This document shows positions 37,723 through 38,145 of a DNA stretch of 64,000 bases, piece after piece. The stretch comes from a virus. Both the position numbers and the translations under genes were made by a program. The DNA lies in the IMG/VR virus record IMGVR_UViG_3300045988_130630; one strand, written 5' to 3'. How positions within the stretch are numbered: the first letter of the stretch is position 1; every line of letters begins with the position of its first letter. Below the pieces are notes generated by a model, which saw nothing but the letters and a program-made list of their open reading frames with translations, did not search any database and was not told the DNA's origin.

Positions 37723-38145
37723 ATGGAAATAACGGCTAATGCTTTACAATCAGTTGCTACTGGTTCTAATGTAGTATTCACTAACACAGCTGTTGCTGGA
37801 AACTGTTCCATACTGTATCGCGAGGGTAGCGGTTTAGTTACCCTCCGCGGTCTTACGAACGGTCAGCGCAGAGCTCGTTTCCGCATTTCATTTGGAGGTA
37901 ATATAGGACTTCCAACCACTGGAACTGCGGGTGCTATTTCTTTGGCTATAGCTATTAATGGAGAGCCAGTTACTACTTCTACAATGATTTCTACTCCTAC
38001 GGCTACTGGATAGTTTAATAATGTTTCACGTGCTTTATTCCTCGATGTGTTAGGCGGTTGTTGCACTCAAATCAGTATTGAAAACACGAGTTCATAGGCT
38101 ATTGATGTTGAAAACGCCAGTTTAATTATCGAGAGAGTGGCATAA
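37723..38145 (+). CDS. BclA C-terminal-domain-like protein (C1q/TNF-like exosporium-protein family), 140 aa, no collagen-like repeats
   Basis: Beta-rich sequence ending ...ENASLIIERVA, closely resembling the BclA terminus ...SASIIIEKVA (recalled from memory). Two in-frame TAG. TAA stop. Confidence 0.5.

Follow-up and report, generated by a model that had tools for sequence, protein, structure and literature searches.

Why should a gut phage encode, as a gene of its own, a protein with the head fold of the Bacillus exosporium nap, and what might that protein do? The question is raised by a 64,000-nucleotide stretch of viral DNA (IMG/VR virus record IMGVR_UViG_3300045988_130630; this whole stretch is called the window below), in which the gene at 37723-38145, designated F0, specifies a product of 140 amino acids (aa). 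A first-pass annotation had described this product, from the letters of the DNA, as an all-beta, stand-alone relative of the C-terminal domain of the exosporium glycoprotein BclA, with a C1q/TNF fold. Re-reading of the sequence confirmed the position of the gene, its start codon (ATG at 37723) and the C-terminal sequence given there; the gene ends with TAA at 38143-38145. The length of 140 aa, in contrast, holds only if TAG is read as glutamine (Gln). In the standard code (code 11) the frame is interrupted by TAG at codons 97 and 125, so that the translation reads ...TPTATG, first TAG, FNNV...ENTSS, second TAG, AIDVENASLIIERVA and the final stop, and the open reading frame (ORF) comprises only 96 aa (37723..38013). 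The string TSSQAIDV in the annotation had rendered the second TAG as Q without saying so, although the glutamine reading itself was borne out. In what follows, F1 is the gene directly 5′ of F0, and F11, F12, F3 and F8 are the remaining genes of the same operon, labelled after the gene families found by comparison of loci; L and P numbers denote compared loci and members of the F0 family. Positions are collected in Table 1.

The first part of the answer is the fold. The structure of F0 was predicted as a monomer with AlphaFold2, the first sequence of the input alignment being a homologue of 99% identity. The resulting model (predicted local distance difference test, pLDDT, 84.5; predicted template modelling score, pTM, 0.81) has 11 beta strands, in keeping with the all-beta character noticed before, and its jelly roll begins at residue 2. 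Comparison of the model with the PDB by Foldseek placed ExsFA (7r1m), the C-terminal domain of F-BclA (9h38) and BxpB (8d02) at the top ranks, with expectation (E) values of 5e-7 to 1e-6, template modelling (TM) scores of 0.67-0.76 and a Foldseek probability of 1.00. TNF ligands, C1q-like proteins and phage fibre knobs occupied the lower ranks, and F0 shows the feature by which the superfamily is recognised, a jelly roll of ten strands that matches TNF ligands as well as C1q heads. Among the predicted viral structures of BFVD, the best matches were stand-alone gut-virome proteins of 130-145 aa (TM 0.76-0.84), two of which already carry the automatic name 'BclA protein'; next in rank were proteins from giant viruses and tailed phages that combine collagen repeats with C1q. 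On this model, F0 is very probably a single-domain, all-beta jelly roll of the TNF/C1q type, whose nearest solved relatives are BclA, F-BclA and ExsFA/BxpB. The description of F0 as a stand-alone phage protein resembling the BclA C-terminal domain is thus upheld by the top structural matches.

Sequence comparison shows how remote this relationship is. The ending SASIIIEKVA that the annotation gave for BclA proved accurate, since PDB entries 2r6q and 1wck end in ...TSASIIIEKVA, as against ...ENASLIIERVA in F0. A search with a profile hidden Markov model (HMM) of the BclA family, which the annotation had proposed as a check, gave a divided result. F0 itself had no match in Pfam at E<=1, BclA_C included (PF18573; gathering score 38 bits, profile length 128), and its homologue in Butyrivibrio phage Ceridwen likewise had no match to BclA_C, whereas 8 of 85 diverse representatives of the family did match, all of them below the gathering threshold. 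BclA_C was the sole Pfam family matched by more than two of the 85, and the BclA C-terminal domain, used as a positive control, scored 87 bits against it. Four members were scanned individually: P0230 (E 6.2e-7, 29.8 bits, profile positions 14-124), P0267 (E 4.5e-5, 23.8 bits, 11-127), P0268 (E 9e-5, 22.8 bits, 12-83) and P0172 (E 1.8e-4, 21.8 bits, 47-127). Three of them cover most of the model and the fourth its N-terminal two-thirds; P0267 ends in ...DANIIIEKV, which is nearly the ending of BclA. Similarity to BclA was therefore found both in structure and, among relatives, in profiles, where the annotation would have given up its proposal had there been neither. Direct comparisons were negative. 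Searches of PDB sequences with F0 alone and with two family profiles gave no BclA or BxpB match, and F0 against NCBIfam gave noise only and no sporulation family. When the family alignments were compared by hhalign with individual sequences of BclA or BxpB (which match PDB 2r6q and 8d02 exactly), no significant similarity emerged; the probability for BxpB was 0.1, and what appeared were only short, correctly registered matches, for example SLAIAINGEP with GLTIQVNGVP. The best E value of BxpB against 150 family representatives in phmmer was 0.011, and an HMM of the most BclA-like sub-branch was not significant against BclA and BxpB. Membership of F0 in BclA_C at the Pfam level was rejected, as the matches lie below the curated cut-off and no direct sequence match was found. 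The F0 family is a distinct family and a remote homologue of BclA_C, for which the structural evidence is strong and the sequence evidence sub-threshold but consistent.

The second part of the answer is that the gene is read through its two TAG codons. This reading is justified by the gain in coding sequence, by the conservation of the TAGs amid synonymous drift, by a full-length match in PHROGs and by the alignment of TAG with glutamine. In the window, ORFs of 150 aa or more cover 31.5 kb with TAG as a stop and 59.9 kb with TAG as sense, in which case the plus-strand half tiles into ORFs of 2,774, 1,105, 959, 768, 759 and 2,581 codons; reading TGA as sense gave no comparable gain in long-ORF coding in the window. 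Both TAGs of F0 are kept in four relatives on contigs of 65-380 kb (one of them 197,927 bp), which differ from F0 at 17-19 codons, mostly synonymously, with seven synonymous changes and one non-synonymous change 3′ of the first TAG. F0 matches phrog_20016 (of unknown function in PHROGs) at E 1.9e-48, residues 2-140 aligning with positions 3-141 of the 141-position profile, that is, past both TAGs. In addition, the TAGs of recoded homologues align with Gln of standard-code homologues at Q9 (Gln in 83 of 85 representatives), in NQN, VQNAN and CCSQ, and at codon 125, where Dulem virus 33, L010 and L019-L026 have Gln and where Q is the commonest residue among the 85 representatives. F0 is a genuine protein-coding gene of a TAG-recoded gut phage (TAG = Gln, code-15-like) with a genome of about 190-200 kb.

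The share of TAG among Gln-type codons is 0.40 in F0, 0.2-0.6 in most plus-strand ORFs and 0-0.2 in most minus-strand replication genes. A late-gene bias of TAG has been reported in recoded gut phages (Borges et al., bioRxiv 10.1101/2021.08.26.457843), and the code 15 phages of the gut likewise have few TAGs in replication genes, concentrate them in structural and late genes and align them with Gln (Borges et al., bioRxiv 10.1101/2021.08.26.457843; Peters et al., PMC9523058). A size of about 200 kb also falls within the range of their large clades (Borges et al., bioRxiv 10.1101/2021.08.26.457843). The 64-kb window, which is about one third of the ~198-kb genome, contains no tRNA gene detectable by ARAGORN, suppressors included, and no gene for code change. 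As regards the longest recoded frames, those of 2,774, 1,105 and 2,581 aa contain 83, 25 and 26 TAGs; examples of the spans of such giant ORFs are 954-9278, 9393-12710 and 23173-30918. In the standard code, the first 21 kb of the window have no ORF longer than 195 aa.

F0 belongs to a very large family. A collection clustered at 90% contained 4,720 homologues at E<=1e-3, all of about 139-141 aa, and a profile search of a library clustered at 50% yielded 817 representatives. The best 150 of these 817 measure 70-196 aa, many being 94-96 aa long or otherwise truncated; such fragments are expected where gene calling halts at TAG. The motif GCC and the hairpin HREGSGxxTLRG are conserved in the family. 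Among the homologues listed (70-196 aa), the domain always stands alone and is never fused to collagen, and a search from the most BclA-like member found stand-alone proteins only and no collagen-fused intermediate. The lack of collagen-like GXX repeats that had been noted for F0 extends to the window, in which a search of six frames for at least five consecutive GXY repeats, addressing the proposal to look for collagen-like partners, found none; nor does the window hold a second TNF-like, BclA-like or BxpB-like gene. For the search of genome contigs, the profile was seeded with a narrower F0 alignment, the 85-member alignment being too variable. Carriers of members at least 40% identical were found among genomes and bins of Lachnospiraceae, Oscillospiraceae and Bacilli type; many are Clostridia, and others are bins labelled Bacilli or 'Mollicutes'. 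The family also occurs in Ceridwen, a phage without an integrase that has been observed growing lytically only and whose host, Butyrivibrio fibrisolvens, is not known to sporulate. Nucleotide and protein searches of INPHARED gave no close relative of the phage of the window. Two of the compared contigs, L007 and L011 (GenBank CAMELE010000001.1 and CAMELE010000010.1), come from one public metagenome-assembled genome, 'uncultured Mollicutes bacterium', with a 97%-identical copy of F0 on a 164-kb contig and a 67%-identical copy on a second contig. Phage contigs probably make up at least part of this bin, whose label is thus unreliable as evidence of the host.

The third part of the answer comes from the partner of F0. 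Six plus-strand genes (36086-39017) form a discrete operon in which F0 is fifth and follows F1, and F1 lies directly 5′ of F0 in 16 of 17 diverse loci. These loci represent recoded and standard-code large phages, 40-kb siphophages, Ceridwen (F1, QHJ73768.1; F0, QHJ73769.1), the temperate Dulem virus 33 and prophages of Lachnospiraceae and of the isolate Eubacterium sp. 14-2. In the 16, the protein encoded 5′ of F0 has 250-300 aa, a hydrophobic anchor, a coiled coil and many cysteines, and the pair is usually accompanied by small Q-rich proteins and an acidic low-complexity protein. Homologues of F11 stand at the same place in Ceridwen, Dulem virus 33 and L022, as do proteins of F3-like character, that of L022 matching phrog_28802. 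At least 7,477 clusters of F1 homologues were found, all without annotation. By alignment, F1 has an invariant N-terminal motif, MFN..YSLSDIAAA, followed by a hydrophobic helix, WWIIILFLF (invariant as WWI..LFLF), with Gly/Trp flanks that carry no charged residues. A low-confidence model predicts long N/Q-rich helices at residues 82-132 and 140-259, and the protein also has CCC and PAYxVANPYTG motifs and a C-terminal tail rich in Cys. The individual invariant residues of the helix are W39, W40, I41, L44, F45, L46 and F47. In most lineages (the window, Ceridwen, Dulem virus 33, L035/L037) the module comes after the lysis genes; the Eubacterium sp. 14-2 prophage instead carries it between the genes for the minor and the major head protein. 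Given this varied placement, the F0-F1 operon is a mobile accessory module.

What F0 binds is suggested by its conservation. F0 is 56-66% identical across seven diverged relatives, compared with 57-60% for dUTPase, 61-66% for NrdG (four of the relatives) and 29-49% for F1, and the three fibre-like ORFs just 5′ have no homologue in those seven. By these sequence comparisons, F0 is under strong purifying selection and is the best-conserved protein of its neighbourhood. Conservation at this level favours a phage protein over a variable host receptor as the ligand of F0. To our knowledge, every protein of this fold that has been characterised is trimeric and serves as cap or anchor for a trimeric stalk, made of collagen in BclA and C1q and of a coiled coil in Pgp3 and the Sf6 needle. 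The title of PDB 9H3D has ExsF gripping a fibre protein by its N-terminal peptide. On this analogy, F0 would form a homotrimer, like the other characterised members of the fold, and the trimer would dock onto a trimeric coiled-coil stalk of F1 as a conserved assembly node, in parallel to the BclA head on its collagen stalk or to ExsF/BxpB holding the N-terminal peptide of its fibre. As F0 has no signal peptide, the assembly would be made in the cytoplasm, and the TAGs (two in F0 and seven in F11) would confine full-length synthesis to the late, suppressor-active lytic phase. Trimeric fold analogues, together with the long helical stalk of F1 and its conserved termini, are the grounds for proposing F0 as a trimeric knob or anchor for the coiled-coil partner F1, a proposal for and against which the chances look evenly balanced. 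A destination at the host membrane near the lysis machinery, reached through the hydrophobic helix of F1, is put forward tentatively, and an accessory appendage on the virion seems a somewhat unlikely alternative destination. In F11, TAG accounts for 7 of the 14 Gln-type codons, which is among the top shares for the window; were suppression limiting, F11 would be the most tightly gated gene.

Several observations weigh against this proposal. Both the F0 trimer and its contact with F1 rest on analogy of fold, the structure having been predicted as a monomer only, and the model of F1 (pLDDT 53) is too poor for a fold search. The GCC motif of F0 and the CCC motif of F1 do not co-vary in presence or absence, and a shared cysteine site of the two proteins, considered as a candidate, was dropped for this reason. 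The hydrophobic segment of F1 is short and has no flanking positive charges, which, with the lack of a signal peptide in F0, makes insertion into the membrane uncertain. Since no suppressor tRNA lies within the window, late gating rests on analogy as well, and since the position of the module varies, position gives no clear hint of function. The proteins of the module have no match in NCBIfam and PADLOC, all are of unknown function in PHROGs, and in Pfam only F8 has matches, weak ones of metallopeptidase type; the lack of NCBIfam and PADLOC matches also leaves readings as a defence system or as sporulation families unsupported.

The closest competitor departs from the knob proposal solely in where the assembly ends up, and otherwise overlaps with it. 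F1 would be a bitopic protein of the host membrane and F0 its soluble partner, and the pair would act at the cell envelope as an accessory of lysis or release, or in superinfection exclusion, with no part in the virion. The invariant helix of F1, with Trp at both ends, and the location of the pair 3′ of lysis genes in the four settings named above are what such a protein would show. The layout of F1 (short N-terminus, single hydrophobic helix, large Cys-containing C-terminal domain) also resembles that of T4-type holins, which have soluble regulators. The absence of a positive-inside charge pattern in F1 and of a signal peptide in F0 speaks against it, as do the separate holin gene already present in the window, the lack of PADLOC matches and the head-gene setting of the module in the Eubacterium sp. 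14-2 prophage, and altogether a purely membrane-bound role is rather doubtful.

The role of a receptor-binding head, which the first-pass annotation had offered as one option, is disfavoured. F0 would here be a trimer attached non-covalently to one of the fibre proteins encoded upstream (31225-34636) and would recognise the host surface, for which its fold is suitable and its distance from the fibre-like ORFs, only about 3 kb, convenient. A holin gene, a strong bidirectional terminator and a regulator gene on the reverse strand nevertheless stand between the fibre genes and F0, which is a separate gene in a separate operon and whose constant neighbour is F1 and not a fibre gene. Receptor-binding tips are normally the fastest-diverging parts of a phage, whereas F0 keeps its 56-66% identity in the very relatives in which the fibre-like ORFs have no homologue, and identity within the family stays at 40% or more between phages from genomes and bins of Lachnospiraceae, Oscillospiraceae and Bacilli type. 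A receptor-binding function is thus considered unlikely. Still less probable is a wider version of the assembly proposal, in which the module would be an exosporium-like self-assembly kit with F0 as an ExsFA-type anchor for fibres of F1. Its parts would be the Q-rich protein, the small Q-rich protein, F1, F0 and the acidic low-complexity protein, joined in some phages by a small Cys-His enzyme-like protein, and the product would be a fibrous, cross-linked layer, put together in the cytoplasm, that covers virions or the dying cell. If this were true, the module would make an unrecognised kind of phage surface structure with an evolutionary tie to the spore nap of Bacillota.

The decoy or spore-surface modifier that had also been suggested fares worse. 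As a mimic of ExsFA/BclA, F0 would insert into the exosporium or coat of a sporulating host or would mask it. This would agree with the fact that the nearest solved structures are exosporium proteins, with the many Clostridia among the carriers and with the composition of the module proteins, which, like coat and exosporium proteins, have no signal peptides and contain much Cys, Gln and low-complexity sequence. The family occurs, however, in a lytic phage of the non-sporulating (as far as is known) B. fibrisolvens and in bins labelled Bacilli or 'Mollicutes', and the in-frame TAGs imply late lytic expression. Furthermore, a jelly roll that starts at residue 2 leaves no N-terminal region for targeting to the exosporium, and neither a collagen-like partner in the window nor an NCBIfam sporulation family was found, all of which makes a spore-directed role very improbable. 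Finally, that F0 is a pseudogene or a 96-aa standard-code product, with similarity past the first TAG as a relic, would agree with the code 11 stop at 38013 and with the failure to find a suppressor tRNA in the 64-kb window, and is hardly credible in view of the recoding signature throughout the window, the retention of both TAGs with 7:1 synonymous to non-synonymous changes beyond the first, the PHROG and family profiles that reach the last residue, the alignment of TAG with an invariant Gln and the model, in which the last three strands of the jelly roll are encoded 3′ of codon 97 and the fold is incomplete without them.

Comparison with known systems sets the F0 family apart from each of its structural relatives. 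The C-terminal domain of BclA (PF18573; PDB 1WCK, 2R6Q) and the tip of F-BclA (F-ENA of Bacillus thuringiensis, PDB 9H38) are the same jelly roll of about 135-140 residues, BclA shares a similar final strand (ASIIIEKVA against ASLIIERVA), and some members of the F0 family match the Pfam model along most of its length. F0 differs from BclA in standing alone, with neither an N-terminal targeting domain nor a collagen-like stalk, in the GCC motif and the HREGSGxxTLRG hairpin, which BclA lacks, and in being encoded by a phage and not being a spore protein. ExsFA/BxpB (ExsF of the Bacillus cereus group; PDB 7R1M, 8D02, 9H3D) is also a stand-alone, single-domain TNF-like protein of similar size, and its grip on a peptide is, by analogy, a possible model for how F0 might hold F1, whose N-terminal motif is invariant. 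In contrast to F0, it has an extension of about 40 residues before the jelly roll; the two have no detectable sequence similarity, and F0 has no exosporium context. The C1q/TNF heads (EDA, C1q, Caprin-2, collagen VIII NC1, adiponectin) and Pgp3 of Chlamydia are only 6-18% identical to F0, and in them stalk and head are one polypeptide, whereas the putative stalk F1 is a separate gene product. The tail fibre of cyanophage A-1(L)/A4, P5 of PRD1, the gp9 needle knob of Sf6, gp23 of TM4 and the receptor-binding protein of phage 1358 have both the fold and the viral setting in common with F0. These knobs, however, are variable C-terminal domains of long fibre proteins, whereas F0 is separate, highly conserved and unlinked to fibre genes. 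The gut-virome proteins A0A8S5S925, A0A8S5SGY1 and A0A8S5U2A1 and the phrog_20016 proteins have the size and fold of F0 and automated names only; F0 has two recoded TAG codons in addition.

Phage knobs of the TNF/C1q type, BclA-like domains, TAG recoding and the automatic label 'BclA protein' are already known. As far as literature searches show, what is new is a huge collagen-free family tied to one coiled-coil partner in a mobile late operon, and a family that evolves like a core protein. With more than 4,700 clusters at 90% for F0 and more than 7,400 for F1, the pair counts as one of the more common gene pairs without annotation in phages of gut Bacillota, spanning 40-kb siphophages to TAG-recoded phages of about 200 kb. 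The head fold of the exosporium 'nap' therefore circulates in phages as a separate, collagen-free module. Standard-code gene calling truncates such genes, and many fragments of the F0 family are found in public catalogues. The fold assignment gives a testable handle, a possible trimeric knob or anchor for a coiled-coil partner, and the cultured phage Ceridwen has both genes.

Table 1. Positions of F0, its operon and the flanking elements in the window
Feature	Position	Strand	Remarks
Fibre-like ORFs	31225-34636		5′ of the operon
Holin gene	34671-35081		phrog_13712; follows the fibre-like ORFs
Bidirectional terminator-like hairpin	35080..35123		19-bp stem; 3′ of the holin gene; upstream boundary
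Response regulator gene	35126-35842	-	Receiver and LytTR DNA-binding domains; between holin gene and module
Promoter-like TTTACA-17-AATAAT	36006..36034	+	Consensus match only; site frequency no higher than in shuffled sequence
F11, first operon gene	36086..36532	+	148 aa; 7 in-frame TAGs; phrog_21718; Q/P-rich N-terminus, then a small domain
F12, second operon gene	36545..36793	+	82 aa; Q-rich; homologue in L022 matches phrog_22984
F1	36820..37701	+	293 aa; one in-frame TAG (37552-37554); phrog_16490
Shine-Dalgarno-like AGAAGG	37710..37715	+	7 nucleotides 5′ of the ATG of F0; seen directly in the sequence
F0	37723..38145	+	140-aa stand-alone protein, TNF/C1q fold very probable (BclA_C-like); phrog_20016 and fold matches
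In-frame TAG, codon 97 of F0	38011..38013	+	Read as Gln; kept in L003-L007; homologues have Q, E, D or A
In-frame TAG, codon 125 of F0	38095..38097	+	Read as Gln; Gln in standard-code homologues
F3	38159..38704	+	181 aa; acidic and Tyr-rich; preceded by AAGGAGG; kept 3′ of F0 in large relatives
F8, last operon gene	38697..39017	+	106 aa; HExxH metallopeptidase-like; phrog_1233, DUF2268 and Peptidase_M78-like, all weak
Bidirectional terminator-like hairpin	39001..39047		20-bp stem; closes the six-gene operon

The two terminator-like hairpins, both very strong, share the outer stem AAAAATAAGGGA...TCCCTTATTTTT, and the pair looks like a reused terminator cassette that brackets the region. The gene for the LytTR regulator is divergent to the operon and conserved in the close relatives L003-L006, and its product may control the six genes. 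An antisense ORF of 67 aa within F0 (37863..38066, minus strand) recurs in several relatives; it was rejected as a gene, being most simply a shadow of the conserved sense frame. On the other side of the operon, the minus strand carries genes for a RuvC-like protein, dUTPase, NrdG, NrdD and a DnaE-type polymerase. Pfam matches of the relatives' genes identify the replication and nucleotide block (40103-48994) as encoding dUTPase, an NrdG-like radical-SAM activase and the anaerobic ribonucleotide reductase NrdD; the DnaE-type Pol III alpha in it has 1,278 aa, no TAG and a match to PDB 2hpi at E 4e-62. The ORF at 21393-23054 had no PDB match. The content of guanine and cytosine is 0.36 at 36001-38000, coinciding with genes of the module, against 0.27-0.30 in most of the window, which could reflect Gly/Ala-rich coding or a foreign origin of the mobile module. 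In small phages, a protein of about 125 aa (phrog_3754) is encoded 5′ of the module (L001, 7068-7445; L002, 5337-5717; L022, 2085-2453). With an N-terminal Cys that is conserved (DC) and a His further along, it resembles a small papain-like or transglutaminase-like enzyme; the window has no clear counterpart, and its operon ends instead with the HExxH protein. The family member P0124 looks like a fusion or deletion that joins the phrog_3754 protein to the TNF-like domain.

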